Shown one piece after another: positions 22,464-43,263 of a stretch of DNA of 64,000 nucleotides. The stretch is from the NCBI GenBank assembly GCA_000004985.1, contig GG738849.1, one strand, 5' to 3'. Positions within the stretch are counted from its first letter, which is position 1. Every line of letters begins with the position of its first letter. A model generated the notes under the pieces. It searched no databases. It was not told where the DNA came from and saw nothing but the letters and a program-made list of their open reading frames with translations. The translations under genes and the position numbers were made by a program. This stretch comes from Naegleria gruberi (taxonomy: Eukaryota).

Positions 22464-24803
22464 TTATTTCCAACTCCATGAATTTTGTGTTTGTTGTGGA
22501 TATCTATTTTGTTGAGTAAAGAAACCAGAATATGCTTGTTGTTGTTGTTGATTCACACCATAAGGATCTACTTGTTTTTGTTGGTGGTTTGGTTCAGTTT
22601 CAGTTGCGTTCATTCCCCAATCAACATTATTTTGTTGTCCTTCGTTTTTGGCAAATGTAATATTTACATTAGGGAGTAAAGCTCTAAAGCTGTTTTGAAG
22701 ATCAGCATTATTAAACATTTGTTCGTTACCTTGTCCATTAGATGAACCTCCAAAGAATCTACTTGTTTGTTGACCAGATCCTGATCCAGATAAATAAGGT
22801 ACTGATTGCATATTCCAATCCATACCATGTCCTCCATAAGGGTAGTGATGTGGCATTTGTTGAGGTTGAGATTGTTGAGATGGTTGTTGTTGTTGTTGAG
22901 GTGGTGCATCAGAAGATGGATTGCCTCCAAAGAATCTAGATGATGTTCTCTTTGTATCAACGTTTTGATTACCATTTGACCAAGCATCTCCATAATATTG
23001 GTAGTAAGGATCATATTGGAAGGTAGCAAACAGCTGCTGAACTTGTTGTGGATATCCATAATATTGGTTTTGCACTTGTTGATAATTTTGTGGAGCAGTG
23101 AATGAATTTTGTGTTCCTTGTTGTGTTTGATCCATTCCAAAACCATTAAATCCATTTGTTGTTGGTTTCGAGTCAACCAATGCAAGTAAAGCAGATCTAT
23201 CACTCGAAATAGGTTGTTGTCCAGATTCAAGACCAAGCATTTCCAAAGTTGGATGTGTTTCTAAAATTTGAGATTCAACTTGGTCTAATGTACTCTCTTC
23301 ATTGATATTTATATTATCAATAACACTGATTGCAACCTTTTCTTGGTTTTCTGATATTAAATCTTCACCACTTGGATCAGTGCTAGATCTTCCACTACTG
23401 CAAGAGTTAGCTTCTGTATTATTAGTATCATTAGTTGTTATTGTTGTAGTTGAAGCTTCTGTTGTTTCTGTGGAAGCCTCAGTTGCTTCTGTTTCTTTTT
23501 GTTTTGATTTCTTGTTCTTGTTCTTATTCTTATTCTTGTTTTTAATCTTATTCTTCTTCTTACTCTTTGTAATATTTGTTGGTAAATTTACAGGTATTAT
23601 TGGAGAAGTAACAGCTGGAGTTACAATAGGAGTAGTAGGTTGTCCCCATCTTGCTGTTTTAGGAAGTATCGATTCTTTGCTATTATCTAACACTTTTGTT
23701 GTTAAATCAGCATATTCTGTTTGTACTTCATCATCTTCTTCCTCTTCTTCACCATCATCATCACCTCCATAATAATAATCATCAATGCTATGATGATCAT
23801 ATTCATGTCTGCTCCTACTGGAAGAACTTGTTCTTGGTCTTGTATTTCCTATGGAGTCATCAGCATAGTCATCATCTTGTAAGTCCTCTTCTAATAGATT
23901 ATCATCGTCGTCGTCCATGATATCATAATGACGAAGTGGATTAGAACGGCTATTTGCTCCCCCAGCAGACAAATCATCATCCTCATTAGATTCATCACCC
24001 TCAGGCTCCTTGTTAGAGTTTTGATACTTCCAGAAATGTTTATCTATCGGTTGTGAATCATCATCAGGTGGATAAAACTGAGACATTTTCTCTAAATTGT
24101 GTGGAACTGGCAAACCATTCCTCAGAACAATTTCATCCTTATTAAAAGTATCTTCATCGTTCCCATATTCGTGTAGATACATACAGTCAGGATTCGTACA
24201 AGGAATACCCTTTAAAAAGTATGCACAATATTTTGTTGTACCAAAAGATGCTCGTAATTGTTTAGCGTCCAAGTAAGTTTTGTCAACAGCCCTAATAGCT
24301 TTATAGGCATCCTCCTTTCTAACATAGGTAATATATGCACTCACTGTAGGAGTTCTATTAGAAGCAATATGTGTTGAATTATGTAAATTACTCTTGTTGA
24401 TTACTACTTTTTTGATTTTACCATACTTTCCGAAATTGTCTTGATGTTTTAACCAATCATGTTTAGCAACAACCAGAGTTAGTCCAACCACATAGACCAA
24501 ATTACGCTGTATAACCCTAACATTTGCGAGTTGTTTTCTGTTAATGTGTGGTTTTTTCTTCTTCTCCTTTTGCTTCTTTTCTTGTTGAATTAATTCTGGA
24601 TCTGGAGGAGTAAATTCAATGTTTGATTTCTCGTATTCTCTTCTACAATTTGGGCAACGTTTGCTTGTATTGTCGATCTTGTTCCAACACCAAGAGCAGA
24701 TTTTAAATCCACACGGACAAGGTTGGAAATGTTTGTCTGTAATGTCCAAGTCTTCGCAGCAAATTGGACAAGTTGTATCTTCGTCGCTTGAATAATCACT
24801 CAT
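22464..24803 (-). CDS. CCR4-NOT complex subunit 4 (NOT4/MOT2 E3 ligase) with a long Q/N-rich C-terminus
   Basis: NOT4-type RING CPICCEDLDITDKHFQPCPCGFKICSWCWNKI...RCPNCRREY, followed by an RRM (LVYVVGL...) and a C3H zinc finger (CAYFLKGIPCTNPDCMYLHE). C-terminus contains NKIKNKNKNKNKNKK and QQQQQPSQQSQPQQ. Confidence 0.8.
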   Translation of the reverse strand: MSDYSSDEDTTCPICCEDLDITDKHFQPCPCGFKICSWCWNKIDNTSKRCPNCRREYEKSNIEFTPPDPELIQQEKKQKEKKKKPHINRKQLANVRVIQRNLVYVVGLTLVVAKHDWLKHQDNFGKYGKIKKVVINKSNLHNSTHIASNRTPTVSAYITYVRKEDAYKAIRAVDKTYLDAKQLRASFGTTKYCAYFLKGIPCTNPDCMYLHEYGNDEDTFNKDEIVLRNGLPVPHNLEKMSQFYPPDDDSQPIDKHFWKYQNSNKEPEGDESNEDDDLSAGGANSRSNPLRHYDIMDDDDDNLLEEDLQDDDYADDSIGNTRPRTSSSSRSRHEYDHHSIDDYYYGGDDDGEEEEEDDEVQTEYADLTTKVLDNSKESILPKTARWGQPTTPIVTPAVTSPIIPVNLPTNITKSKKKNKIKNKNKNKNKNKKSKQKETEATEASTETTEASTTTITTNDTNNTEANSCSSGRSSTDPSGEDLISENQEKVAISVIDNININEESTLDQVESQILETHPTLEMLGLESGQQPISSDRSALLALVDSKPTTNGFNGFGMDQTQQGTQNSFTAPQNYQQVQNQYYGYPQQVQQLFATFQYDPYYQYYGDAWSNGNQNVDTKRTSSRFFGGNPSSDAPPQQQQQPSQQSQPQQMPHHYPYGGHGMDWNMQSVPYLSGSGSGQQTSRFFGGSSNGQGNEQMFNNADLQNSFRALLPNVNITFAKNEGQQNNVDWGMNATETEPNHQQKQVDPYGVNQQQQQAYSGFFTQQNRYPQQTQNSWSWK

Positions 24804-25544: not shown

Positions 25545-28500
25545 ATGAGTATTACAGTTTCTGATCAAAATGATTTTAACAATCGTCAGTCAAAGGGAAA
25601 TATTAGTTGTAATTACACATCAACCAATCAATTCGCTGCTAGTTCAGGCGCTTCTGATTTTGTAAATATTGATATCCATCAGGAGGACAGAGAAATAAGT
25701 CAATTGAAAGATGCCCATTTACTTTCGATTGATCAAGTTGCCAGTCAATTGAAAACTAACATTGAACGTGGATTGACTGAAGATGAGGCTAAACAAAGAC
25801 TAGACAAACTTGGTTTGAATGAATTGAAAAAAACAGGAGGTGTAAAGATTTGGAAAATTCTATTGAGACATACTTTTGGTTTTATGAATATTGTTCTGCT
25901 TGCTGCGTTAGTTATTGCATTTGCAGTTCAAGAGTGGATTGATGGAGCTGTTATTGGTTTTATTATTCTTGTAAATGTTGTAATTGGTTTTGTTCAAGAG
26001 TTTAGATCTGAGAATTCCATGCAAAAATTGAAATCACTTCAGGAAACAACTTCCACAGTCATTAGAGATGGAAGAGTTGTAGAAATCAAATCAAAATTTC
26101 TAGCTGTTGGAGATTTAATAGAGCTTAATGAGGGAGATCACATTCCTGCTGATTGCAGAGTTGTCTATTCAGCACAATTATCATGTCTAGAATCTATTCT
26201 GACAGGAGAGTCAGAACCTATTAAGAAAAATCCACAAACCATTGTTCCTAAACCACTTCCTGTCGGATCCCAATCATTTGATGTTAGACCTTCAACATTA
26301 ACAAATCAATCGAATACTACCACCAGTAGATTCTCTTTTGCACGAAGAAAGAAGGATTACAATGTATTGGGTGATAGATTTAATATGGTTTTTGGAGGCA
26401 CAGTGATTACAAAAGGTAAAGGAAAAGCAATTGTTACTTGCACTGGAATGAATACAGAATTGGGTGCTATTGCTCAATCTCTTAATAAGTCCAATGACAG
26501 CAAGTTCAAGAATGCTATTGTGAAATTTTTTGCTCCTAGTGGATCAAGATTACAAAAGAGAATGGGTTTACTAGGTATCGTGTTGGTATTTGCTGGATTA
26601 ATTTGTACTGGACTGGTTTTATTGGGTGTTTATATTCATGGAACAATTCCAATCATTCCAGATGGATTGAAGATTGGTGTTTCAACAGCTGTTGCAGTAA
26701 TTCCTGAAGGATTGGCTCCTGTTCTTACATTGACAATGACAATGGGAGTTTTAAAGATGGCCAAGAACAATGCTATCGTTAGAAGACTCGATGCTATTGA
26801 GTCACTGGGTAATATTACAGATATTTGTACTGACAAAACAGGAACACTCACTGAGGGAAAGATGAGTGTTCGAGAAGTGTATTTGAGCGATGAATCAGAG
26901 TTGAGTGTTGTGAAAACTGTCTCCCCACCATCTGCCAATCATGAACCTCAAAGATCAGTTACTGAATTGATCAATGATAGAGGAGTAGTGGTAAATATCG
27001 ACTCAAATCAATTACTAACCATTTTCCTCACCATTTCCTCCTTGTGTAATGGTGCAAATATAGTCAAGACAAATGAGAAGGAGAATCAAGAGAAACCCAA
27101 TCCAAATCAAAATAAGAAAGCTACAGAAGAAGAATTTGTTGGTGATCCAACAGAAATAGCTCTCCTATCTCTTTCGACATGTTATGGACTCTCTAAGGAA
27201 AAGCTAATTCAAGACAGCTCATTCACATTTCATGAAGAATTCCCATTCGACAGCACCCTGAAAAGAATGACAGTTCTTTACAAGAAGAATGGTCATGAAT
27301 TTATATTAACTAAGGGTGCTCTAGAGCAAACATTACCACTCTGCAGTTACATGTGCTCAAATAGTGATAACATTTCCATATTATCGGAAATATCTGAACA
27401 GGATGCAGAAAAGATTAAATACCAAGCAGAGGGAATGGCTATGAAGGGGTTGAGAGTTCTTTCTCTTGCTTTTCGTCAAAATGCAAGTTTCGAAACAATT
27501 ACTCAAAGAGAAGATGCAGAACGCCAATTGACCTTTGTAGGTTTGGTTGGAATTCAAGATCCACCTCGAGGTGGTGTACATGAGGCAATCAAACTTTGTC
27601 AACATGCTAATTTGACTGTGAGAGTAATAACTGGTGATCACAAAATAACAGCCAAAGCAATAGCACACGAATGTGGAGTCATTGAAGCCGATGACGAAGA
27701 TCTTGTCATGAACGCAAGTACATTTGATAGTATGTCAGATCACGAACTGAGATTATTACCAGATTTACCCAGAGTAATTTCGAGATGTACACCAGGCACT
27801 AAGGAAAGAATGATTGAAGCTCTCCACGCCAGGAAGAAATATGTAGCCATGACAGGTGATGGTGTGAATGATTGTTCCTCTATTAAGGCAGCTGATGTTG
27901 GAATTGCAATGGGAATTACAGGTAGTGATGTGACCAAGGAAGTGGCTGATATCGTTCTAACTGACGATGACTTTTCAACTATAGTTATTGCAATTAAAGA
28001 AGGAAGACACATGTTTGAATCTATCAGAAAGTTTACAATCCACTTGTTATCTGGTAACGTATCACAAACTATATTATTGGTAGTTACTGCCTTGTCTGGA
28101 TTGCAGGTTCCTCTCAATTCCATTCAAATTCTATGGCTTAACTTGGTTACTGGAACAGGACCATCATTTGGATTGGGAAAAGAAAAGGTAAGAAATGATA
28201 TAATGGCTCCTGGATTCAATAGTGGTATGTTCACATTCGAAACCATATCTGATATTCTAGCCTATGGGATAGTTATGGGAATGCTTGGAATGGCTAACTT
28301 TTTATTGGCAACAATGGTTTGGGGAAGACCTTTGATTGAGGCTCAATCACTTACCTTCGTTACAGCCACTTGCCTGTTGCTACTCCATGCATACACATGT
28401 AGACATTTGAGGAAGCCATTCTTTGAGGATGGTTTCTATGAGTGTTGGGTGTTACATTTATTTGTCTTTTTAGGATTGGTTTCAACCATTGCAACATTAT

Positions 28501-28682
28501 ATATTCCTTGGGTAAATTCTAATATTTTTCACCAAGTTCCACTTAACAACCCAATAGATTGGGTATTTGTATTATTTGCAGGATTATTACTCGTGATTTT
28601 TTCAGAAGTTTACAAAGGAATTAAGAGATGCATTATTTCTCTCAAACTAAAAATTAGAAAACGAAGATTACATGGAGTTTAG
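25545..28682 (+). CDS. P-type cation-transporting ATPase, most like type IID (ENA-type Na+/K+ efflux pump)
   Basis: Motifs TGES (LTGESEP), phosphorylation site DICTDKTGTLTEGKM, VGDPTEIALL, and hinge MTGDGVNDCSSIKAADVGIAMG. The block IPEGLAPVLTLTMTMGVLKMAKNNAIVRRLDAIESLG resembles ENA-type pumps more than SERCA/PMCA. Ten predicted TM helices. Single exon. Confidence 0.75.
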   Translation: MSITVSDQNDFNNRQSKGNISCNYTSTNQFAASSGASDFVNIDIHQEDREISQLKDAHLLSIDQVASQLKTNIERGLTEDEAKQRLDKLGLNELKKTGGVKIWKILLRHTFGFMNIVLLAALVIAFAVQEWIDGAVIGFIILVNVVIGFVQEFRSENSMQKLKSLQETTSTVIRDGRVVEIKSKFLAVGDLIELNEGDHIPADCRVVYSAQLSCLESILTGESEPIKKNPQTIVPKPLPVGSQSFDVRPSTLTNQSNTTTSRFSFARRKKDYNVLGDRFNMVFGGTVITKGKGKAIVTCTGMNTELGAIAQSLNKSNDSKFKNAIVKFFAPSGSRLQKRMGLLGIVLVFAGLICTGLVLLGVYIHGTIPIIPDGLKIGVSTAVAVIPEGLAPVLTLTMTMGVLKMAKNNAIVRRLDAIESLGNITDICTDKTGTLTEGKMSVREVYLSDESELSVVKTVSPPSANHEPQRSVTELINDRGVVVNIDSNQLLTIFLTISSLCNGANIVKTNEKENQEKPNPNQNKKATEEEFVGDPTEIALLSLSTCYGLSKEKLIQDSSFTFHEEFPFDSTLKRMTVLYKKNGHEFILTKGALEQTLPLCSYMCSNSDNISILSEISEQDAEKIKYQAEGMAMKGLRVLSLAFRQNASFETITQREDAERQLTFVGLVGIQDPPRGGVHEAIKLCQHANLTVRVITGDHKITAKAIAHECGVIEADDEDLVMNASTFDSMSDHELRLLPDLPRVISRCTPGTKERMIEALHARKKYVAMTGDGVNDCSSIKAADVGIAMGITGSDVTKEVADIVLTDDDFSTIVIAIKEGRHMFESIRKFTIHLLSGNVSQTILLVVTALSGLQVPLNSIQILWLNLVTGTGPSFGLGKEKVRNDIMAPGFNSGMFTFETISDILAYGIVMGMLGMANFLLATMVWGRPLIEAQSLTFVTATCLLLLHAYTCRHLRKPFFEDGFYECWVLHLFVFLGLVSTIATLYIPWVNSNIFHQVPLNNPIDWVFVLFAGLLLVIFSEVYKGIKRCIISLKLKIRKRRLHGV

Positions 28683-29277: not shown

Positions 29278-30852
29278 ATGCTGCCTCTACTCCACAACCA
29301 TCAAAAGATCATGAAAAAGCAAATAATAAAAAAGCCTAAGGGCAATGGTGGTAATACTAGCAATAATAATAATCAGAAACAGGAAAAAACAAAACAAGAA
29401 AAAAGACCAAAATCTGCACAAATTGATCATCAAAAAACAAGTCAAAACAAACAAGAAAGCAAATCATCACAATCTGAAAGACCAAAATCTGCACAAAGAG
29501 ATCAAAAATCAATTTCAGAGAACAAACAAGAAACTTTGTCTGAAAAAGATCAAAAATTAAAGAAGGATTCGGTAAAGAAAGATGGGAGACAAGATAGTGT
29601 TGCATATTCTCTTCCCAAGATAGATCGATCATTATTTTCTTATGAATATATTCCAGAATATTCTTTTGAAAATGTTCAAGAATTGATAAAGAATGGAAAT
29701 TTGGAGAAGGCTGCACAAGTTATGAATTTGGTATTGAATCCGTCGATTGAGTGTTTGTGTTATGCTTTGAATGTTAATCAACGGATTAACAATTCGAAGA
29801 AAGTGGCAGAGATTGGAGCAAGAATAGACAAATTGGTTGGTTTGAAAGCTAAAGCTAAGAAAATCAAATTGAATTATAATTGGAAACAAATTTGGCCCTA
29901 TTTGGATTATTTAATTGATGAAACTTGCAAGGATAGTTCAATAATTGAAAGAGAAATTGAGTTTAACCTTAAAAGTTCGAAATGTGAATCTTACACAGAG
30001 GAGGACGACAGTGCTATTACCAAATACTGTGAATGGAATGAAGAGTATTTCAAGCAGTTACGTTATCCCTTTGCGTTTGGTACTGGACGAAACAATTTCT
30101 TGACCTCGTACATTAAATTATCAAATTACACCATGAAAGAAATGGAAGCAAGAAAATTAGATTTTCATTTCTTTAAAGGAGAAATGAGTGAAGAAAATAT
30201 TTGCCCATCAACATTTTATAATTTGATTGCTAGAGTTGGATTGACAAGGGATCATTTATTAAATGGTAAACATGGTTTCAAGGATATGATTCGTGTTTTT
30301 CCATATAAAGTGGAAAGCTCACTAGCCAACTCGGAAAGTTTTTCTCAAGATGTTGAGAAATATATCAATAACAAGTTGGAAAATACCCATCAACCCTACG
30401 TTGTGTTTGTCTTTTCATTTGACAGTGATTTTACAGTCAAGAGAGGTATTGTAAATTACTACAATGCATTTAACATCTACCCAAGTGCCACAATTATTGA
30501 GACAACAGAAAATAGAGTTTACTATTGCTTTGAAAACAATAGAAAGAAAACTATTGATCTCCACAAAATGTCAGTCGAGGAGGCAAAAACAAGAGTACTC
30601 GAACTCATTCAAGAACGATATGAATACAGAGACAGAGAGTTCAGTATAATAACTGGTAAAGGAAATCATGTGAATGAGAATGGAACCTCTGGTGTGCTTC
30701 GTGAATTGATTGGAAAGTTATTGAAAGAGCATCCTCTTGTGGAATCAGCAAAACTTTTAGAGGGAAAGTATGTGGTTAAAATCAAAGAAAGACCATTTGA
30801 TTTCTTGGAACAAGATTGGATTGAATTTAAAAAGACTCAGTACAACAAATGA
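29278..30852 (+). CDS. Smr (small MutS-related) domain protein with a K/Q/S-rich N-terminus
   Basis: C-terminal MSVEEAKTRVLELIQERYEYRDREFSIITGKGNHVNENGTSGVLRELIGKLLKEH matches the Smr domain. The stop is TGA. A 51-codon upstream ORF with an A-run Kozak context (ATG ~29093) is in the same frame, separated by a single TAA. Confidence 0.6.
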   Translation: MLPLLHNHQKIMKKQIIKKPKGNGGNTSNNNNQKQEKTKQEKRPKSAQIDHQKTSQNKQESKSSQSERPKSAQRDQKSISENKQETLSEKDQKLKKDSVKKDGRQDSVAYSLPKIDRSLFSYEYIPEYSFENVQELIKNGNLEKAAQVMNLVLNPSIECLCYALNVNQRINNSKKVAEIGARIDKLVGLKAKAKKIKLNYNWKQIWPYLDYLIDETCKDSSIIEREIEFNLKSSKCESYTEEDDSAITKYCEWNEEYFKQLRYPFAFGTGRNNFLTSYIKLSNYTMKEMEARKLDFHFFKGEMSEENICPSTFYNLIARVGLTRDHLLNGKHGFKDMIRVFPYKVESSLANSESFSQDVEKYINNKLENTHQPYVVFVFSFDSDFTVKRGIVNYYNAFNIYPSATIIETTENRVYYCFENNRKKTIDLHKMSVEEAKTRVLELIQERYEYRDREFSIITGKGNHVNENGTSGVLRELIGKLLKEHPLVESAKLLEGKYVVKIKERPFDFLEQDWIEFKKTQYNK

Positions 30853-32044: not shown

Positions 32045-34537
32045 TTACAATTTATCACAATAATCAGTGTAGAGAGGAATTTCTTCCTTCAAGCCCTTTC
32101 TTATTCTAACATCTTTGATGAGTTGGTTTGCTTTAGATTGAGGATTGTAAACATCATCTTGCATAACTTGCCAATGACTGAATCTAAATTGAGAAAATGT
32201 TTGATTTTGAGATTCTTCTCTCAGTTTCTCGTCCCATCCAAAACTTTCAATCACAGGGAGGTAACCAGAAATGACCACAAGGGGAGATGGATTAATTATT
32301 GTTGTGTTAATTATATTACCTCTTCTGTTAAAAATATCTCTGTAAACTGAACTTGTGAATGATTCATTGGATTGAACCTCAAAATGATACATTGGTTCTA
32401 CTAATTTTGGTTCAGCTCTCAGTTGACTAGCGAGCATGAGTTTAGCGCTAACTCCAACCAATTGACCTGCTCCTCTGTGAATGGAATCGGCGTGCAAATG
32501 ACAATCATGTAATTTGAAAAGAACACCTCTCATGACCTCATCACACAAACCACCCGAAGCAGTACTTATTTGAAAACCTATCGTTACATATTGCTGAATT
32601 TCATTAAGATAGCTAGTTGATTTGGATGCATTGACGAGTATGTTGGTTCTAGAGTGTGTATCTGGGCCGAAACTCCATATATTCTTTGAAATAGTCTTGT
32701 CCCATCCAAAATCATTTTCCATAATTTCAGCTATCTTTTCTTGTTCATCCATTGGAAATTGATCTCCACTTATTAATTCTATCAAGTCTTCACTAATAGG
32801 TTCCGCTTGCATGTATAGACGGTTGTGTTTGTTGGGACTTTTCCTCATTAGCATTTCTTCACTAGGATAACTAGAAACAGTTTCATGAAAATTAACGAAA
32901 TACGGTGATTTTTTGATCTGAATATCCTTTGTGAATTCTTGCAAATGACACGTTTCTAAATGGTATTCACTTTCTGCACCTAGAACACATTGTCCTGAAT
33001 CATTGAACTTGCATGATAAATTAACATTGCTCTGTATGAGTTGTTTCAAACGCTCAACAAAATTTGGCAAATCTGAAGGGTTGGTTGGCTCAACACTCAT
33101 CGAAACAATAGGACTCATATATTGTCTTATACCCTTAATTGGCATACATGCAACTCCACCTTCTTCTGTGAATGTGCACGATTTGATAAAATACTTATCC
33201 AAACCAACAATACCAATTATTGAGCCACAATACGCTCTATCAATACACTCAATGTTTGTACCAGATAGCAATAATAATCTTGCAGCACTTGTATGAAAAA
33301 CATCCTTCTTGGTTTTAAAGTTGGGGCCCAATATTCTAATTGTTGTCGATTGAGAGAAAGAACCTGAAAAGACACGAGCCAAAGCAATTGAATCACCACT
33401 GTATGTGCATTTTGGTGGTAACATCTTACTCACATACACAACCAATGGTCCATATGGATCACATTCCTTGATTCCAGTTGCATACGGATCTGTCAAGTCT
33501 TCACCAGTGTAGAGAATATCATATTTGGTTTTTTGAGCTTCCTTGGGAGAAGGCAAATGATCAATAATCATTTGAATGAGTGATTTCCGAAGAGGAAGAA
33601 ACTTTTTCATAATGACCTCGATGAGCTGTTTCGAATTTCCTTTCTTTTCCTCTCGAGAAAGGTGGATTAATAGTGTATCTAGAGTTTGTTCAAATCCAAC
33701 TGATAACATGCCTTGATCAGAGGGAATGTGGGCTCGAGCAAGATTGAAAATCTTAAAAATTGGTGCCAATATAAATTCAGAGAAAGTATGGTTCAATTGT
33801 TGACCTGTTGTGGACGAATAGGGTTGTCTTGTGAACTTTTTAATTGACCTGTCATAGTAATAATCTCCCCACAACTTTTTGATTAACTTTTCTCTTGAAA
33901 TGTTAAATTTTGAACTGTAGAATTGAGCAAAGTTATTGAGATTGAAAGCCCAACCCATCCTAGCAGAACCAAACACAACATTACAATCAACTGGATCAAG
34001 AAGATAACTATTCGATTCTTCATTGGAATATGCAGAAAGAGTGACATTAACAGACTCTATAATTCTAACAATAATTCGATAGCTTTCCTCCTCAGTCAAT
34101 TGTAACTCATTAATGAGACGGTCAATCTTGTTAATGAAAAGAATAGGTTTTACTCTTTCTTGTGCAACTTGTCTAACCAATGTTTGTGTTGGACTATGAC
34201 CCTCAACTGCATCTACAACAATGATAGTTCCATCACTAATATTCATTGCACTGACCGTTTGATAATTCATAAAAGCAGGACAATCAATCAAGTTGACCAA
34301 ATGAAGATCATCTTTTTTGGTTGGATTTTCATAAATCAAACTATAATCATTTGATAAATTATTCTCAATTTCATCATGATTTGCTTCCAAATCATCTGCA
34401 AACTTATTTTCTTCAATCAATTTCCGAGTTAGGGTTGATTTACCATGATCCACATGAGCAATGATACTAATATTTCGAATATTGTCATAATTTCGTAATA
34501 GATGATCAATCTTTTCTTTTCTATTGTTGTTGATCAT
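32045..34537 (-). CDS. EF2-family GTPase, EFL1/Ria1-like (ribosome-assembly GTPase), with a degenerate switch II
   Basis: G1 AHVDHGKST, G4 NKID, and an EF2-family C-terminus HADSIHRGAGQ...ESFGW are present. It is far more divergent than true EF2. The first real ATG is MINNNRKEK at 34537 (track start 34597 is GTG). Where EF2/EFL1/Snu114 have DSPGH, this protein has DCPAF. Confidence 0.7.
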   Translation of the reverse strand: MINNNRKEKIDHLLRNYDNIRNISIIAHVDHGKSTLTRKLIEENKFADDLEANHDEIENNLSNDYSLIYENPTKKDDLHLVNLIDCPAFMNYQTVSAMNISDGTIIVVDAVEGHSPTQTLVRQVAQERVKPILFINKIDRLINELQLTEEESYRIIVRIIESVNVTLSAYSNEESNSYLLDPVDCNVVFGSARMGWAFNLNNFAQFYSSKFNISREKLIKKLWGDYYYDRSIKKFTRQPYSSTTGQQLNHTFSEFILAPIFKIFNLARAHIPSDQGMLSVGFEQTLDTLLIHLSREEKKGNSKQLIEVIMKKFLPLRKSLIQMIIDHLPSPKEAQKTKYDILYTGEDLTDPYATGIKECDPYGPLVVYVSKMLPPKCTYSGDSIALARVFSGSFSQSTTIRILGPNFKTKKDVFHTSAARLLLLSGTNIECIDRAYCGSIIGIVGLDKYFIKSCTFTEEGGVACMPIKGIRQYMSPIVSMSVEPTNPSDLPNFVERLKQLIQSNVNLSCKFNDSGQCVLGAESEYHLETCHLQEFTKDIQIKKSPYFVNFHETVSSYPSEEMLMRKSPNKHNRLYMQAEPISEDLIELISGDQFPMDEQEKIAEIMENDFGWDKTISKNIWSFGPDTHSRTNILVNASKSTSYLNEIQQYVTIGFQISTASGGLCDEVMRGVLFKLHDCHLHADSIHRGAGQLVGVSAKLMLASQLRAEPKLVEPMYHFEVQSNESFTSSVYRDIFNRRGNIINTTIINPSPLVVISGYLPVIESFGWDEKLREESQNQTFSQFRFSHWQVMQDDVYNPQSKANQLIKDVRIRKGLKEEIPLYTDYCDKL

Positions 34538-34617: not shown

Positions 34618-36363
34618 TTAATGCTTCAAATTCAAAATTGAATGATTTTTACACCACAGAACACAAAGAAATGAAAAATTGAAAAGTATTACAACTTTAT
34701 ATTCTTCATCATTAAAATCAGAAAGCTCCTCCTGATCAAATATGATATTATCCTCCTCATCGAGAATCAATTCTTCTTCATCTTCAATATCAAAATCTTC
34801 ATCTCTGTAGAACTCGACAACGTCATCTGCTTGCCACAAATTCTTGAAGAGCAATTTGTGGCTGAAACCTTTCATTTCAAAGTGGTTCTTCATTGTATCA
34901 AAGCTTTCTTCCAAAAGTTTGAGATTTTGATTGAGGAATTGACCGCTGACAGAAGAGTTTAGAGTTTCTTGGTATTGGGAAATGACTCTTGATATGGTTT
35001 CGTCTTTTCCAATGAGTTCTTGGTAGATTTCAATGGCATGTTTGACATTTTGTAATGCAAATTCAATGTTGGCTTTCAAACCTTCAAGGATGTAGGTCTC
35101 AGTTTCGAATATCATTAATTCTTTAGCTACATTTCTATCAGTACTATTTCTGTCTTCAAACAACTGACCAAGTTTCTTCATTGATTCGTTAATTTGTTGA
35201 ATAAATGTTTTGGAAGCTTCTTCTCTCAAATAAATGCATTGATTAGAAACGGAATCAATTCTTCTTAATAATCTTTCGAATATTATTCCAAGTTTCTCAT
35301 CTTCCCATTTAAAGGTACCAAATTGTTTAGATGGCTCATTAATAATTTTTTCTTTCATTTCCTTAATGAAAATACATGCATTCGGAAACATGCATTCTAA
35401 TCTTGCTCTCAAAATCTTTACAATAATTCTATTTTGACGTGTGGTCATAATTGTGATTCTTCTAAGCTTTGGATTGGCGATTTCACTCAAAGTTCCAGTG
35501 TTTAATCTAATGAATGTTTCTGGAATGACAACATGTTCAAAAACCGATATTTTTCTCATAATTTCATCTAAGGATAAACTACATTCCTCATTTAGAATGG
35601 TCAAATCAGAAACTTTCAGATTGGATGTATCTCTAATTGTCCATGGTGGATATTTTACAGTGATGGAAGAGCACAAACTGGACGATTCTTCAAAAAGCTC
35701 CAACTCGTCAATTCTGTTGAGAAAGAGTTTCTTTAGAGGTCTTTGATTTTTGTAGAATGAAAATTTGTTAATACCAAAATCTGTCAAATTTGAATAGTTA
35801 TTGGGATTGACACTTGTTAAATTTTGTTGATCAATGATATGTAATTTTTCCAAGCCATTGATTTTGCACTTTTTACAGAACTCGACCATGTCATTGGTGT
35901 CAATGATGGTAAGGGATTTGAAACATTTCACTATTTCTCTAGCAGATGTTCTATCCCAAACTCTTGCTTTTTCTTTAAATTCAATAGCATTACACTTATC
36001 AATGATGAGCTTGTTGATTTTGCTTTTTCTTGGATTTAACATTGAATGAATATCAGAATATTTCAAATTAATCTTGGAACTTTTCAAGCAAATCAATCAG
36101 CTTATTGTCAAATAGTCAATATTCATCAAACGAATCTTGAGTTTGGCTGACTCGTTTGAAATATGCATTGGTAACATTGCACTCAAAACTTCAATATCCT
36201 TAATACTCGATACAATAACACCTTCTCTTCTGTTAAGTAACTTAACTAATTCCCATTGAGTAGCACTCAAATCTTCATCGAAACCTATTTCAGTAGGTGG
36301 ATGTAATGCAAAGTGCTTTCCGCCACCAAGAGAATACAAACAACCAGCAATTGCTGAGTTCAC
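34618..36363 (-). CDS. F-box-like/leucine-rich protein interrupted by one in-frame TGA (possible pseudogene or read-through)
   Basis: Track ORFs 36097-36363 (88 aa, real ATG) and 34618-36096 are directly adjacent in the same frame: ...NIDYLTIS-TGA-LICLKSSKIN... No GT..AG intron can remove the stop. Confidence 0.35.
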
Positions 36364-36498: not shown

Positions 36499-38274
36499 AT
36501 GTTTGGAAAACTATTGCTCACTGTTTTCATCGTCATCTTTATGGCACAGGAAAGCAGCGGTTGCACTCTTCAGAATTGGCGATATGAAAAGAACACGTAT
36601 GGGAAGCTAACAGTTCAAGAGAATAAGAGCAACAAAACATACTTGTTCAATATTGTTGATAATCTCCAAATGTTACATGTCAGAAAACACACTGTCTTTT
36701 TGTCATTCTTTGATATATCCTACTTTGATCAGAAGATTAACATGAATTTGAGTGGAACATCAAATTATTTGGATGTCATTCAACAAGTGAAAGGATGTTT
36801 CGATACTTCCTTGGCTGAACTGTTCATTTGCTATGCCATTTCCAACAGAAGATTTGAATGCTTTTTAGTGAAGGAGCAAAGTATTGAACATCCAACCATT
36901 AAACAGCTCAATTACATCCCCTACTCGATTATCATTTTGATTCAATTTTCCATTTCCGTTTTAATAACAATTTATATGGGATGTTGTAATAAGAAAATTT
37001 ATGGTACAACTAAACAAACTCAGAAAAATACCAATCCAGAACCACAAACCAAGAAAAAACCCCTACAGAGGGAGAAGTCCACGCCGCCTTCAACAAACAA
37101 TGATGACATTGAACTAGATGAACAACAGGTCCAACAAACACATGAACATGGTGAGGATGATGGTGAGGATGATGCGGCTCAAGACGAAACAAATTTAATA
37201 GAAAGAACCACTACCTCTTCCACAGAACAAGATGAAAAACCTACCTCTTCCTTTTCCACTTTTTCCGTTGTTGTCTTGTTTTTAATATCAAGAACGCTAC
37301 GCCAGAAAATCCCTTTTGTGAGCAAGTTGAACGAAAACACTTTCACAGGAAAAAACATGTTTTTGTGGGTGGGCTGTTTTTGTGTTGGATGGTTTGTTTT
37401 TATGGAAGATTTTTTTCCAGAAACCATTATCCCCATCATTTGTGGAATAGTATTAGCAAAGCTTGTGGTGAGTTTGATTTTGGACTACACATCCAATGAG
37501 CGTTTAACAGAGTGGAGTGAAGTAATTTATTTTTTATGTAGGTGTATGATGGGTGCTATTTTTTTGATTGCAATTGTTATTTACATGATCACCAGAACAA
37601 AAAAATTTTACGGGTACAGTGAAAATATGATTGGTGAAAAATTAGTCTATTGAATTGATTTCTCTTCCTCCATTGTGATCATTATTGCTTCTTGTTTTAG
37701 TTGGCTAATTTATTCAGAATGGAATTCATATAATCATCAAGAAAATCCTTTTTTAAATGTCTTTAAAGACTTTATCCGCCAATCGCAAATCACTTCCACC
37801 TTATCTGGATTTTTCATTGTAATTGTAATTAGAGAAATATGTGAGGATTCATATATTTTGTACTCATTGGAACTAGTTAACCCTCTGGTAATCCCCTTAC
37901 TAATGATTATCGTTGAGGGTTACTTTTTTCATAAAATCAGTATAAAAATGCTTGTAACAGCAGAGGAAAAGTTGAGCAATAAGAATTACAATATGATGCA
38001 TGCAATGTATGAGTGCACAATAGATAACCTCGTCAAGCTGTTGGCCATTACATTATCTGTATGCTTATTGATAGTCATGGTTATTTTCTCTGTCTACCAG
38101 TTTAAACTCAAAGGAATGGAGTTTGTTAGTTCTCTCATAGTGGGTGCTCATGTTTCCATTCAGTTTTGGATGGATACTCATGAAGAAAGTTATAGTTCAG
38201 AAGTTTCTAAAACGGTTGAAAAATACTGCGCAGAAACCAACCATCATCATGATCAGATATTAAAATCCATCTAA
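36499..38274 (+). CDS. Signal-peptide multi-TM membrane protein; two same-frame ORFs separated by a single TGA
   Basis: Signal peptide MFGKLLLTVFIVIFMAQESSG, then TM segments and an acidic cytoplasmic stretch. ORF A ends with TGA at 37651-37653. ORF B (37675) is in the same frame, 21 nt later, and continues the TM-rich composition. No intron fits. Confidence 0.35.
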
Positions 38275-39450: not shown

Positions 39451-40758
39451 CTAATAGCGGTGTAGAGCAAAATCTTTGAGGTATAATTGGATTGCCAATT
39501 TGGATGCTAAACTTTTACGTTTTCCACTCAACCAAGCACTAAAATTACATGGGTCAATATTAAAAATTTTACAAAACTCGTTTTGTGTTGAAGTCCAAGA
39601 CAATTTCCACAGTTGTATCAAATCAATATCATTCAGTTCCATAATATGTTCAGGCAATTCTCCTAAACTCGATATAACAAACTTCTTAACATCTTCTTTG
39701 GGTTTGTACACAATTGGTGTTGTTTTCGAGTCTGTTAAGAATAATTTTACAGACATTTCTGACGATAGACTTTCGTGTTTTCCTCTCAACCAAGCACTAA
39801 AATTACCTATGTCAATATTATAAACATTACAAAATTGTTTCTGTGATAATTTCCAACTTTCTTTAAAATACTGTATCAATAACGCAGTATTTAGATAGTC
39901 TACATCAATCAAACCGTGTCCTTCATCTTGCTTTTGTGATGCTATAAAGTTTAAATGTTGAAATAGAGGATCCAATTCAGATGAGTTTTCACAATAACAA
40001 AGAGAAATTTCATTCAACAAATCTTGCCATTGAATTTTTCTTCGTTTTCTTTCTGTAATTATTTCTACTAAATCAAGGGTGAGTTCAAAACCAGTGATGT
40101 ATTTAAATACTGGCTTTGCCAATTCAAAATGTTGAACATCTTGAATTAGAGAATACAAGCCAGAGTTTTCTAAAGGATATCCTGTTCTTTTCTCAAGAAC
40201 TTCTGAATAGGCATAATCGACAGATTCTTTTAGATAGTATTCTTGATCAGTTTTTGATTCAATGCATAGTTTCAAGTTATGAATGCAATCATAATAAAAA
40301 TCTCTAGAATTAATTCCCAATCGTTCTCTCACTATTAATTCCCAAATATTTCTAATATCCAGTCTCGATATTTTGATGGTGCTGGAATTACATATTTTCA
40401 CTAACAAGTGCAAACTATCCTGATAACTATACGAAGAACTGCACCATGGAAACCAAGGCTTTTCTAAACAAACTTCTAACATTCGCTTTTCATCATGGAA
40501 AATAACAAAAGACGAATGAAGAGAAAATAAACCACTTTTTAGAGTGAGAGAAAATTCTTGTTCCGACTGATCTTGTTCTTCCCTTAAATCACATTCAATA
40601 ATATTTCCATCCCGCTCAACTCTAAGCTCTTTCGCTGTTCCAAAGCGATAGAAAGTGAGAGTAACAGATTTGAGGCTCGTAGTTTTTTGTTTGATGCAGA
40701 GATGGGATGCTTCTTTGACCACTTTGTCAGCGGAACTGATTGAGCGTAACACAATCAT
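39451..40758 (-). CDS. Hypothetical protein with two tandem C-terminal lambda-repressor-like (XRE/CUT/POU-specific-like) HTH repeats
   Basis: Repeat 1 is WKLSQKQFCNVYNIDIGNFSAWLRGKHESLSSEMSVKLFL. Repeat 2 is WKLSWTSTQNEFCKIFNIDPCNFSAWLSGKRKSLASKLAIQLYL. Both fit the 'TQ.EFA...GI....IS.WE.GKR.PS...L.KLA..L' pattern of Cro/C1-type HTH. Confidence 0.4.
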   Translation of the reverse strand: MIVLRSISSADKVVKEASHLCIKQKTTSLKSVTLTFYRFGTAKELRVERDGNIIECDLREEQDQSEQEFSLTLKSGLFSLHSSFVIFHDEKRMLEVCLEKPWFPWCSSSYSYQDSLHLLVKICNSSTIKISRLDIRNIWELIVRERLGINSRDFYYDCIHNLKLCIESKTDQEYYLKESVDYAYSEVLEKRTGYPLENSGLYSLIQDVQHFELAKPVFKYITGFELTLDLVEIITERKRRKIQWQDLLNEISLCYCENSSELDPLFQHLNFIASQKQDEGHGLIDVDYLNTALLIQYFKESWKLSQKQFCNVYNIDIGNFSAWLRGKHESLSSEMSVKLFLTDSKTTPIVYKPKEDVKKFVISSLGELPEHIMELNDIDLIQLWKLSWTSTQNEFCKIFNIDPCNFSAWLSGKRKSLASKLAIQLYLKDFALHRY

Positions 40759-40911: not shown

Positions 40912-43263
40912 ATGGTTCCCGCCAAGGCAAACTTGTGGAAGCTTTCAAAAAAAATGAGCCCAAACCAAATGATCATTCAACCATTCAATCAATGTATCTA
41001 TATGATTCATCATGCCACAACTGATATTGAAGAATTTTACATGATTGATGCATCGGATGCTGATAATATTGTTAAACGCCTGATTGCAACAGTTAATTTA
41101 AACGATTTGGCTAATGTTTCAACAGAAAATGCTCCTATTTGTAGGCTTGAACAAGTCATTTTAGATTGGGAGAGTGATTTGATGAATCAACTTGTTGGAT
41201 CACAAAAATTAATCAGAGGTTTCGCCAAAACAGTCAAAAGAAGTGAAAATTACTGTTCTTCTTATCGTTCCTGTTTCGTATGGAATAGTGTGAACGATTT
41301 TGATGTGAAAAATATTGTTATTGCTGATATCAATGAAGATGGTATTTCATTTGTTGACGGTTTCATGCTCATGTCATATAATAGAGCTCCAAGTCTTGAA
41401 AAGAGTCAATCTGTTAATTCTCTCAAATTGGAACCATGCAACGAGATTACAATGCCACAATCAGATATCATGTCAAGAACGGAATCTGTTGCAATTGTTA
41501 TTCCTTGCTCAAATGTTATCAAAAGAGATTACTCACTGAATGGTTTTTTTGATGGAAAAGACAAGGTTTATTTATTCGATTTGAAGAGTGGAAAATTTGA
41601 CCTTTCAGTCACTGGTGTTTCATTTGGTGCCACTTTCGTGAATTCTTCTTGTGGAGTTTGTAATGTACCATTCTTGGAGGGTGAGAGATTAAGAGTCTTC
41701 TTGCTTCTAAGTTTTAGATTGTATGAAATTGTTTGGAAAGGAGAGGAAAATAATAGTGATCTAATCTTAATCAGACATTTGGAATGGATTGAAAGAATCA
41801 ATTCTGTCACAAGAATGGATAATTTTGGTTTATTGATTCAATCTAGGTCAAAAGATGGTACTCAATATTATGTCTATTGTCCACAACCTTATAATACAGA
41901 GAATTTGAAAAAGGAAGGGAAATTGATAGAATTACCAAAGAGTGTTTATGAGAATGTTACAGATATAGTGTACGCTCCTAAATCCAAGCGTCTCTTGTCT
42001 GTGAAAGATGTAAATCTTTCAAAATCACTCAGTTTGGAAGAAATTCAAGTATTACCATCAAACATAATCAAATCAATTTTCAATGAAGAAGAATATTTGG
42101 AAAAGTTAAAGTTTGACACTTCATTTAAAACATATCAACCAAGACTCATAACTGATGCATGTGAAGTGGTAACAACAATTCCCAATCATCCAAGAATTAG
42201 TCGAGCTTATCAAATTCTTGAAGGAAGACACAATGAAATTGAAATTGTTGCTGGTATTGGATGTAAGAATTATATTGACAAGTTGGGAGATTTAATTTCT
42301 AATGATTATGTAGAATTGAATATTGAGGATTTGGCTGATTACCTTGGTGCTCCAGTAATTTATGAACAATATTCTATTGTAGAATATACTTATTTTATCA
42401 AAGATATGGTTGATGGATTAAGATCTTCAAAAGCTATTGAATTTTCTCGTGTAACAAGAGGAGGAGGAGGAGGATATGGTTCCTCCTATGCTTACTTTAA
42501 TGATGATTTTTCGTCCCCAAAGTTTATTGGCATATTATCATGCAGACCAAAGCAACCAGAAGAAGAAGAAGATGATGAAATGGAGGATGAGGAAGAGAAA
42601 ACTGAAAAAGAGTACGAACAATTGTTCAGAACAAAAGAGTTCAAAGTTGAGAGTACTTCAATGGTTGTCATTGATCCATTTACAACAAACTCTGGCGTAA
42701 TCATAAAGAATGTAAGACCTGGTATTTGGAATTGGAAAACTACTCACAAATCCAAAGATCATGTGGATGGAGGTTATGAGGACCATTTTTTGACAGCTCA
42801 AATAGTTGCCATTCATCAAGATTATTATGAAGAATTAAGTTCTGATCCAAAACTTTGGTTAGTTCCAAACAATGTCTACAGAAAATTGGAGAGAAATCAC
42901 AAAGTTGAAAGGGATGAATACTATGATGATGAAATTGAGGGAGGATGGTTTGTTATGAAATTGGGTGTAGGGGTAGACGTTGCCATGGCTGGAATCTTTG
43001 ATGAAAAGTACTTTAATGATGAAAAATGTTTGGAATTGAAGAGAAAACCAAAATCCAAATTTGAAGCTTCTTGCAAGCTTTCGTTTAATTCAGATTGGCA
43101 AGATTACTTTTTCAAAAAGATGGAGCAAGATAACTATCCTTCAAAATTAGCAGCACCTTTTGGAATTATTACTTCAAGTGGATATGGAGATGGATGTTAT
43201 GCTTGTTTATTCAAGAAATCAAAAGGAGGAGATGTTATTGCTGTTCGTCTTGTATTTTGTTAA
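40912..43263 (+). CDS. Hypothetical 783-aa protein with a DUF4241-like C-terminal domain
   Basis: C-terminus ...GWFVMKLGVGVDVAMAGIFDEKYF...FGIITSSGYGDGCYACLFKKSKGGDVIAVRLVF matches the characteristic SGyGDGsYpvy...G.vva DUF4241 motif. It is transcribed divergently from the HTH gene across a 153-bp intergenic region. Confidence 0.4.
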   Translation: MVPAKANLWKLSKKMSPNQMIIQPFNQCIYMIHHATTDIEEFYMIDASDADNIVKRLIATVNLNDLANVSTENAPICRLEQVILDWESDLMNQLVGSQKLIRGFAKTVKRSENYCSSYRSCFVWNSVNDFDVKNIVIADINEDGISFVDGFMLMSYNRAPSLEKSQSVNSLKLEPCNEITMPQSDIMSRTESVAIVIPCSNVIKRDYSLNGFFDGKDKVYLFDLKSGKFDLSVTGVSFGATFVNSSCGVCNVPFLEGERLRVFLLLSFRLYEIVWKGEENNSDLILIRHLEWIERINSVTRMDNFGLLIQSRSKDGTQYYVYCPQPYNTENLKKEGKLIELPKSVYENVTDIVYAPKSKRLLSVKDVNLSKSLSLEEIQVLPSNIIKSIFNEEEYLEKLKFDTSFKTYQPRLITDACEVVTTIPNHPRISRAYQILEGRHNEIEIVAGIGCKNYIDKLGDLISNDYVELNIEDLADYLGAPVIYEQYSIVEYTYFIKDMVDGLRSSKAIEFSRVTRGGGGGYGSSYAYFNDDFSSPKFIGILSCRPKQPEEEEDDEMEDEEEKTEKEYEQLFRTKEFKVESTSMVVIDPFTTNSGVIIKNVRPGIWNWKTTHKSKDHVDGGYEDHFLTAQIVAIHQDYYEELSSDPKLWLVPNNVYRKLERNHKVERDEYYDDEIEGGWFVMKLGVGVDVAMAGIFDEKYFNDEKCLELKRKPKSKFEASCKLSFNSDWQDYFFKKMEQDNYPSKLAAPFGIITSSGYGDGCYACLFKKSKGGDVIAVRLVFC

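Follow-up and report, generated by a model that had tools for sequence, protein, structure and literature searches.

Several translational GTPases are known in which the machinery for hydrolysing guanosine triphosphate (GTP), or for using it in translocation, is compromised. Ski7, a budding-yeast paralogue of Hbs1, has serine in place of the catalytic histidine and has been proposed to bind GTP rather than hydrolyse it (PMC4509514). EF-G H91A, which carries an engineered substitution, binds GTP normally without hydrolysis, translocates about 30-fold more slowly and is locked on the ribosome (PMC4718068). Some archaea (Asgard, Korarchaeota and Bathyarchaeota) have second EF-2 copies, aEF-2p, that lack residues for normal translocase function (PMC6143161). 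The amoeba Naegleria gruberi has been noted to have ‘several versions of eEF1A and eEF2’, ‘often highly divergent’ (Atkinson 2015). Here we describe an eEF2 gene of N. gruberi in a stretch of 64,000 nucleotides of contig GG738849.1 (assembly GCA_000004985.1; hereafter, the window). The gene has lost two of the motifs of the GTPase domain, switch I and switch II, and is predicted to encode a paralogue of eEF2 that would bind nucleotide without hydrolysing it.

An eEF2 paralogue that lacks the GTPase switches

The protein encoded by the window gene is 100% identical to N. gruberi NEG-M XP_002681727.1 (EFC48983.1, UniProt D2V235; also P0001), which is annotated as ‘elongation factor 2’ and whose gene lies on an 850-kb scaffold. 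The G+C content of the window is 33%. An earlier, sequence-only reading of this DNA had flagged NLIDCPAFMNY at switch II, in a protein with an intact P-loop (AHVDHGKST) and NKID motif, and had pointed out that both the glycine of DxxG and the catalytic histidine are replaced. Translation of the minus strand and alignment bear out each of these observations. Around the flagged codons the translated open reading frame (ORF) reads ...HLVNLIDCPAFMNYQTVSAM..., and LVNLIDCPAFMNYQTVSAMNISDGTIIVVDAVEGHSPTQTLVR is an example of a peptide that is unique to this product.

We aligned 29 sequences, comprising the window protein, a near-identical protein from a metagenome contig (L001) and 27 other eEF2 homologues (coordinates of the motifs are given in Table 1). 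At the position of DCPAF, all 27 other eEF2s, including the nearest paralogue, have D[SC]PGH[VI]DF. The minus-strand codons TTG ATT GAT TGT CCT GCT TTT ATG AAT TAT of the window gene encode LIDCPAFMNY, in which Gly88 is replaced by Ala and the catalytic His89 by Phe, followed by a deletion of two residues; Asp85 of DxxG is kept.

The damage extends beyond that described in the sequence-only reading, to switch I, to the residues lost after switch II and to two further degenerate motifs. Eleven residues (1, 7 and 3) are deleted from the switch I remnant, which aligns as ADD-------LEANHD-EIENNL---SNDYS. This stretch is acidic, and the invariant GITIKST block, with its Mg/gamma-phosphate threonine, is gone. 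The EGCRGQTE of other eEF2s reads EG-HSPTQT in the window protein, and in domain III, the motif AGELHLEICL, which packs against the switches, has become ESEYHLETCH, followed by a deletion of three residues. The G5 motif, GSA, is intact and compatible with guanine binding. The domain IV tip loop, which has a role at the decoding centre (Narrowe 2018, PMC6143161), is canonical, and the diphthamide loop is also present; its His687 is equivalent to His699 of yeast and is the predicted diphthamide residue.

Counts of substitutions at otherwise invariant sites follow the same division. Among 209 positions that are invariant in the 27 other eEF2s, 49 are changed in the window protein, compared with 0–16 in nine control sequences. 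The changes fall mainly in the G core (27/84) and domain III (11/23), with few in the G'' insert (1/29), domain II (3/21), domain IV (2/25) and domain V (5/27). In a separate count with a slightly different set of invariant sites, the G core and domain III together show changes at 41 of 118 sites, and the other domains at 12 of 107 (Fisher P = 3e-5). The distribution of substitutions indicates that the GTP-sensing apparatus and the domain III coupled to it have decayed together, and that the nucleotide pocket and the decoding-centre tip have been spared.

By homology, the window gene is nevertheless a paralogue of eEF2 and not, as the sequence-only reading had proposed, an EFL1-like factor. 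In a search of all Protein Data Bank (PDB) chains, the best matches are eukaryotic eEF2 structures, with an alignment over residues 8–830 (608 bits, E = 2e-181). The eEF2 chains score 525–608 bits, Snu114 at most 416 bits and EFL1 260 bits in four separate pieces (5anb). Every one of the closest database relatives is named elongation factor 2. The window protein aligns collinearly with eEF2, without extra modules at either terminus, and ends in -DKL, which is common to canonical eEF2 sequences. The Pfam domains GTP_EFTU, EFG_IV and EFG_C are found above the cut-off, and EF-G_D2 (25.5 versus 27) and EFG_III (22.3 versus 27) fall slightly under it; the EFL1 domain PF25118 scores 18.8 bits, under its cut-off of 30.9. 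The label EFL1-like was therefore rejected on the grounds of similarity scores, the Pfam cut-off, the diphthamide loop, the -DKL terminus and a phylogenetic position inside the heterolobosean eEF2s, together with the separate Ria1 listed for N. gruberi. Membership of the Snu114 (U5-116K) family, which is marked by an acidic N-terminal extension, is likewise not indicated: matches to Snu114 begin at about residue 120–160 of the full-length chains, and the window protein has no counterpart of the preceding N-terminal part.

An AlphaFold model built from a 69-sequence alignment has the five-domain fold with the G'' insert (predicted local distance difference test (pLDDT) 86.7; predicted template modelling score 0.71). 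The model is confident except for residues 41–60, and the pLDDT is 52–66 in the switch I remnant. In Foldseek searches, it matches ribosome-bound eEF2 with template modelling (TM) scores of 0.77–0.79. Full-length similarity, fold and the domain IV tip and diphthamide loop thus all place the protein with eEF2, and only the complete series of G1–G5 motifs is missing. With a G-domain fold and degenerate G2 and G3, it also fits the description of a pseudo-GTPase. Given the loss of G2 and G3, it should be regarded as a homologue of eEF2, but not filed as a working translocase.

We considered whether DCPAF could be an error of assembly or sequencing and rejected this, because the same codons occur in an independently assembled sequence. 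The metagenome contig L001 (ENA ERZ929261; 2,645 bp), the only other record of the window protein, encodes a protein of 834 amino acids that is 98.4% identical to it, with nine residue differences and three short indels, and carries identical GAT TGT CCT GCT TTT codons. The three indels that distinguish the window gene from L001 (an additional Leu and an additional His, both in the switch I remnant, and an additional Ser-Ser after DCPAFMN) are all in frame and all lie in the degenerate switch loops.

Origin within a second eEF2 lineage of heteroloboseans

The nearest relative of the window protein is N. gruberi XP_002676641.1 (59% identity), which is present as at least four near-identical full-length copies and a fragment, on three large scaffolds and a 12-kb contig. 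The next relatives are single proteins of Naegleria lovaniensis, Naegleria fowleri and Willaertia magna (44–46% identity) and of Acrasis kona (39%). We refer to this group as B-type eEF2; it includes N. fowleri FDP41_008200, N. lovaniensis C9374_014705, Willaertia ABK040_000356 and the Acrasis kona protein, and the window protein shares sequences specific to this lineage with it, among them YTGEDLTDPYATGIKEC and HLPSPKEAQK. All B-type relatives have intact G1–G5 motifs, and only the window copy has lost G2 and G3. Alignment of switch II across relatives, a check that the sequence-only reading had suggested, shows that DCPAF is limited to one gene of one species lineage. We therefore rejected the idea of a variant tolerated throughout the clade, as every other heterolobosean eEF2, B-type or canonical, has D[SC]PGH. 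No orthologue of the window gene was found among the database relatives from N. fowleri, N. lovaniensis or Willaertia.

Bootstrapped neighbour-joining analysis nests the window protein in the heterolobosean eEF2 clade (100% bootstrap) and groups it and the L001 protein with the N. gruberi B copies as their sister (100% bootstrap), leaving N. lovaniensis and N. fowleri outside this group. The tree was rooted at its midpoint, a root that is distorted by the long branch. The window gene therefore stems from a duplication, specific to the N. gruberi lineage, of a heterolobosean B-type eEF2. Three-point branch lengths are 0.47 for the window protein and 0.08 for the sister copies, and parsimony places 180 changes on the lineage of the window protein, compared with 23 on that of the sister copies. 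The window gene thus evolves about 6–8 times faster than its sister copies.

A canonical eEF2, XP_002674553.1, is encoded elsewhere in the N. gruberi NEG-M genome and clusters at 90% identity with its counterparts from N. fowleri and N. lovaniensis; canonical eEF2 is also present in Willaertia (P0087) and Acrasis (P0136). A published survey lists nine eEF2, one Ria1/EFL1 and two Snu114 proteins for N. gruberi (Atkinson 2015, Additional file 2). A search for canonical factors elsewhere in the genome, which the sequence-only reading had also called for, is thereby answered for both eEF2 and EFL1. Of the two interpretations offered in that reading, a regulatory pseudo-GTPase paralogue is a fair description, given that the glycine and histidine are lost with G1 and G4 intact and that the gene is a paralogue beside canonical factors. 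The other, a rewired step of 60S maturation, did not hold up: the records of a canonical eEF2, a separate Ria1/EFL1 and Snu114 argue against it, the protein is eEF2-like and nothing links the gene to 60S maturation or eIF6 release.

Naegleria, Willaertia and Acrasis, all heteroloboseans, thus possess a second eEF2 lineage that evolves fast and has its G motifs intact (P0002, P0122, P0123, P0125, P0003, P0005, P0006 and P0010) beside a highly conserved canonical eEF2 (P0188, P0087 and P0136), a point that has been little studied. The distance between N. gruberi and N. lovaniensis is 0.45 for B-type proteins, and the canonical copies are at least 90% identical. The switch I stretch RF(T/M)DTR of canonical eEF2, which is the threonine site of eEF2 kinase in animals and yeast, is RV(C/L)D(V/I)DK in Naegleria and Willaertia B-type proteins; Acrasis differs. 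The B-type lineage is either an old paralogue or an accelerated heterolobosean duplicate. We also observed that the domain IV tip loop KSPNKHNR is canonical in the switch-less copy and reads RSANGHNR in the GTPase-intact B sisters of N. gruberi, so that the two paralogues have diverged in complementary parts of the protein.

Selection on the window gene

Because synonymous divergence (dS) would be saturated at 59% identity, we judged the long branch by the nonsense codons and indels expected on it and by an analysis of site classes. The nonsense-to-missense ratio of this sequence, 0.067, predicts 12–17 stop codons for 180–250 neutral replacements, but the window ORF contains none (P at most about 5e-6), and all 12 indel events relative to the sister copy are in frame. 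The chance of a random open frame of 830 codons, given this base composition, is about 1e-28. Between the window gene and L001, there are eight synonymous and nine non-synonymous differences (dS 0.016; ratio of non-synonymous to synonymous divergence (dN/dS) 0.29; P = 0.013 against neutrality), and this second strain or allele retains both the ORF and DCPAF.

Constraint on the gene is clearly relaxed, to judge from the substitutions: within the G core and domain III, changes are as frequent at formerly invariant sites as at variable ones. From the absence of stops, the in-frame indels, the dN/dS of 0.29 and the canonical tip loop, we nonetheless conclude that the reading frame is actively maintained and that the protein is still under selection outside its GTPase switches. 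The G'' insert and domains II and IV remain constrained.

Possible functions

What is kept and what is lost suggest that the product of this fast-evolving extra copy of eEF2 is probably a non-hydrolysing, ribosome-binding derivative. As a mechanism, we tentatively favour a nucleotide-binding, non-hydrolysing factor that occupies the ribosome without cycling, either as a brake on elongation or as a plug of idle ribosomes. Through the retained G1, G4, G5 and Asp85, the protein would still bind guanine nucleotide, but it would neither sense the gamma-phosphate nor hydrolyse GTP on the sarcin–ricin loop, so that the cycle of binding, translocation and release could not run. Its eEF2-like domain IV would allow it to dock into the ribosomal factor site and the A site as eEF2 does. 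There it would stay as a non-cycling occupant that slows elongation or competes with it; alternatively, it may plug idle or dormant ribosomes much as eEF2 can, for instance when cells starve or encyst. On hibernating 80S ribosomes, eEF2-GDP is parked together with SERBP1/Stm1, and the top fold matches of the predicted structure include several eEF2 structures on SERBP1/Stm1 dormant ribosomes. A narrower proposal, which we regard as possible but doubtful, is that the protein is a dedicated natural eEF2 that is GTPase-dead, bears diphthamide, is directed to the A site and serves in ribosome parking or hibernation, or in elongation braking, during starvation, encystment or differentiation.

Several points weigh against a non-cycling ribosome occupant. 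The gene is known from its sequence and predicted structure alone, and our literature search for the gene, its accessions, Naegleria eEF2 paralogues and switch-less eEF2 returned solely the remark by Atkinson. The switch I deletion and the change of Gly to Ala may bar the GTP-like conformation in which EF-G and eEF2 have high affinity for the ribosome. Overall, formerly invariant sites change at about half the rate of variable sites, 5 of 27 invariant positions are changed in domain V and the domain III Pfam match is below the threshold; with constraint relaxed in this way, docking on the ribosome may be impaired too. The dN/dS between strains rests on only 17 substitutions. Finally, the gene is limited to one species lineage with at least four intact, redundant B copies, a classic setting for non-functionalisation.

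The main rival is a decaying duplicate, and we consider it a serious, if rather unlikely, alternative. Under this explanation, a redundant member of the expanded eEF2 family lost its function when its switches were hit and now drifts with little or only residual constraint; its ORF would be intact simply because decay is incomplete. It would account for the rate of 6–8 times that of the sister copies, for changes at 23% of universally invariant positions and for invariant sites in the G core and domain III that change as fast as variable ones. It is also in keeping with the canonical eEF2 and the near-identical intact B copies (at least four) in the same genome, with the lack of a detected orthologue in N. 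fowleri, N. lovaniensis or Willaertia, and with switch remnants that gain and lose codons freely between strains. What it explains poorly is that 12–17 expected stops are absent and that 12 of 12 indels are in frame, that dN/dS is 0.29 between strains, that 92–97% of invariant positions are kept in the G'' insert and domain IV with the P-loop, NKxD and domain IV tip perfectly preserved, and that the heterogeneity among domains is significant (P = 3e-5).

Neofunctionalisation away from the ribosome seems improbable. The protein might be a scaffold or decoy, such as a sink for bacterial ADP-ribosylating toxins in an amoeba that feeds on bacteria, or a subunit of another complex in the manner of Snu114. 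The surface of eEF2 that exotoxin A, diphtheria toxin and the Dph enzymes recognise is formed by the diphthamide loop and the domain IV tip, which are the best-preserved parts of the window protein. The eEF2 family is also unusually expanded in N. gruberi, with nine entries (Atkinson 2015), and Snu114 is an example of an eEF2 paralogue that has left the ribosome (PMC4342817). However, this proposal is purely conjectural: neither a partner nor a localisation signal nor an extra domain points to it, the protein is collinear with eEF2, and the preserved domain IV tip is explained equally well by binding at the decoding centre.

We think it very unlikely that the protein is a still-active translocase that hydrolyses GTP in an unconventional way, with other residues or groups of the ribosome standing in for the histidine and the DxxG glycine. 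There are GTPases that do without the canonical catalytic residue, and the P-loop, NKxD, Asp85 of DxxG and domain IV tip are intact. Yet switch I, the DxxG glycine, the catalytic histidine and the domain III GELHLE motif have all been lost together, phenylalanine is unable to position a water molecule, and in EF-G, replacement of the histidine alone abolishes hydrolysis (PMC4718068). An EFL1/Ria1-like factor with impaired hydrolysis and an altered SBDS/eIF6-release step in 60S maturation is as good as refuted: EFL1 belongs to the same EF2 superfamily and has a weak, sub-threshold Pfam match (18.8 bits), but the scores (608 bits for eEF2 versus 260 for EFL1, in four fragments), the length of 830 amino acids collinear with eEF2 (the solved EFL1 chain has 1,120), the retained diphthamide loop, the position in the eEF2 clade and the separately listed Ria1 all speak against it.

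If the protein is made and binds ribosomes, the gene would be a natural experiment in which the two jobs of eEF2 have come apart: the decoding-centre tip is kept, and the GTP motor and its switch are lost. As a non-cycling occupant, it could show how an eEF2-shaped plug silences or protects ribosomes, and how domain III co-evolves with the switches. A GTPase-dead eEF2 would be a natural counterpart of EF-G H91A and the first reported eEF2 paralogue of its kind; in the searchable literature, we came across no account of an eEF2 paralogue that naturally lacks its switches. It would also be part of a wider, so far uncharacterised second eEF2 lineage in heteroloboseans. If the gene is merely decaying, it would instead be a clear record of the order in which an essential motor protein collapses: the switches and domain III are lost early, and the nucleotide pocket and domain IV hold out longest. 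The gene has no bearing on EFL1/SBDS-dependent 60S maturation.

Genomic neighbourhood

Several other ORFs surround the eEF2-like gene (Table 1). The closest with a Pfam match encodes a protein with a C-terminal Smr domain. Smr-domain proteins include ribosome-collision endonucleases, and the proximity of this ORF to the eEF2-like gene is probably coincidental. Further away are an ORF with an architecture like that of Not4/CNOT4 and ORFs for a ubiquitin ligase, a cation ATPase and a DUF4241 protein; on the start side of the eEF2-like gene, three ORFs have no Pfam match. As the order of genes in eukaryotes seldom carries information, we read no function into the neighbours.

Table 1 Coordinates of the eEF2-like gene, its motifs and other ORFs in the window
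Feature	Position	Strand	Details
Whole gene, eEF2 paralogue	32045..34537	-	Intronless ORF, 830 codons from ATG plus stop, uninterrupted (ORF list)
G1/P-loop AHVDHGKST (residues 27-35), intact	34433..34459	-	Identical in 29/29 aligned eEF2 sequences
Switch I/G2 remnant IEENKFADDLEANHDEIENNLSNDYS (residues 41-66)	34340..34417	-	Alignments; low pLDDT
Degenerate switch II/G3 NLIDCPAFMNY (residues 82-92)	34262..34294 (DCPAF, 34271-34285)	-	Alignment; same codons in L001
G4 NKID (residues 136-139), intact	34121..34132	-	Alignment
G5 GSA (residues 190-192); GSG in other eEF2	33962..33970	-	Alignment
Degenerate domain III motif GAESEYHLETCHL; AGAGELHLEICLKxL in other eEF2	32942..32980	-	Alignment
Domain IV tip loop KSPNKHNR (residues 566-573), fully canonical	32819..32842	-	Alignment
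Diphthamide loop HADSIHRGAGQ (residues 682-692)	32462..32494	-	Alignment
ORF with C-terminal Smr domain	29278-30852	+	524 amino acids; Pfam E = 3e-13; about 1.2 kb from the eEF2-like gene
ORF with Not4/CNOT4-like architecture	22464-24803	-	779 amino acids; N-terminal RING/U-box-like zf-RING_4 (E = 1.5e-18) and weak RRM match
TRIP12-like HECT ubiquitin ligase	47703-52367	-	1554 amino acids; intronless ORF
P-type cation ATPase	25545-28682	+	1045 amino acids; intronless ORF
Protein with C-terminal DUF4241	40912-43263	+	783 amino acids; intronless ORF
ORF	34618-36096	-	No Pfam match
ORF	36499-37653	+	No Pfam match
ORF	39451-40758	-	No Pfam match

Comparison with known systems

Canonical eEF2 (yeast Eft1/2, PDB 1N0U; N. 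gruberi XP_002674553.1) shares with the window protein its five domains and G'' insert, a length of about 830–840 amino acids and collinearity at about 40% identity, as well as the P-loop, NKxD, SPNKHNR, H-x-D-x-I-H-R-G-x-G-Q and -DKL motifs and the predicted fold (TM about 0.78). The window protein differs from it in a switch I that is 11 residues shorter and lacks GITIKST, in DCPAF instead of DxPGH and in its degenerate GELHLE motif. The B-type eEF2s are the parent lineage of the window gene, but have G1–G5 intact and a branch that is about 6–8 times shorter. EFL1/Ria1 and Snu114 belong to the same superfamily and have the same domain order, and Snu114 provides a precedent for a role outside the ribosome (PMC4342817); their similarity to the window protein is much lower (260 and 416 versus 608 bits), and each has its own genes listed for N. 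gruberi.

Among factors with altered GTPase function, Ski7 resembles the window gene in having arisen by a lineage-specific duplication of a translational GTPase and in having another residue at the position of the catalytic switch II histidine. Ski7 belongs to the EF1 family, has ordered switches I and II and carries a polar serine at the histidine position. The window protein is a member of the EF2 family without any added module, and it is the more extreme case, because its switch I is deleted altogether. EF-G H91A has lost the switch II histidine in a protein of the EF-G/EF2 type and offers a mechanistic model for an EF2 without this residue, although it is no natural paralogue: only one substitution was engineered into it, and its switch I, DxxG glycine and domain III are intact. 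The archaeal aEF-2p proteins show a different pattern of loss: they are reported to lack the domain IV tip and diphthamide motifs, which the window protein keeps while losing the GTPase switches.

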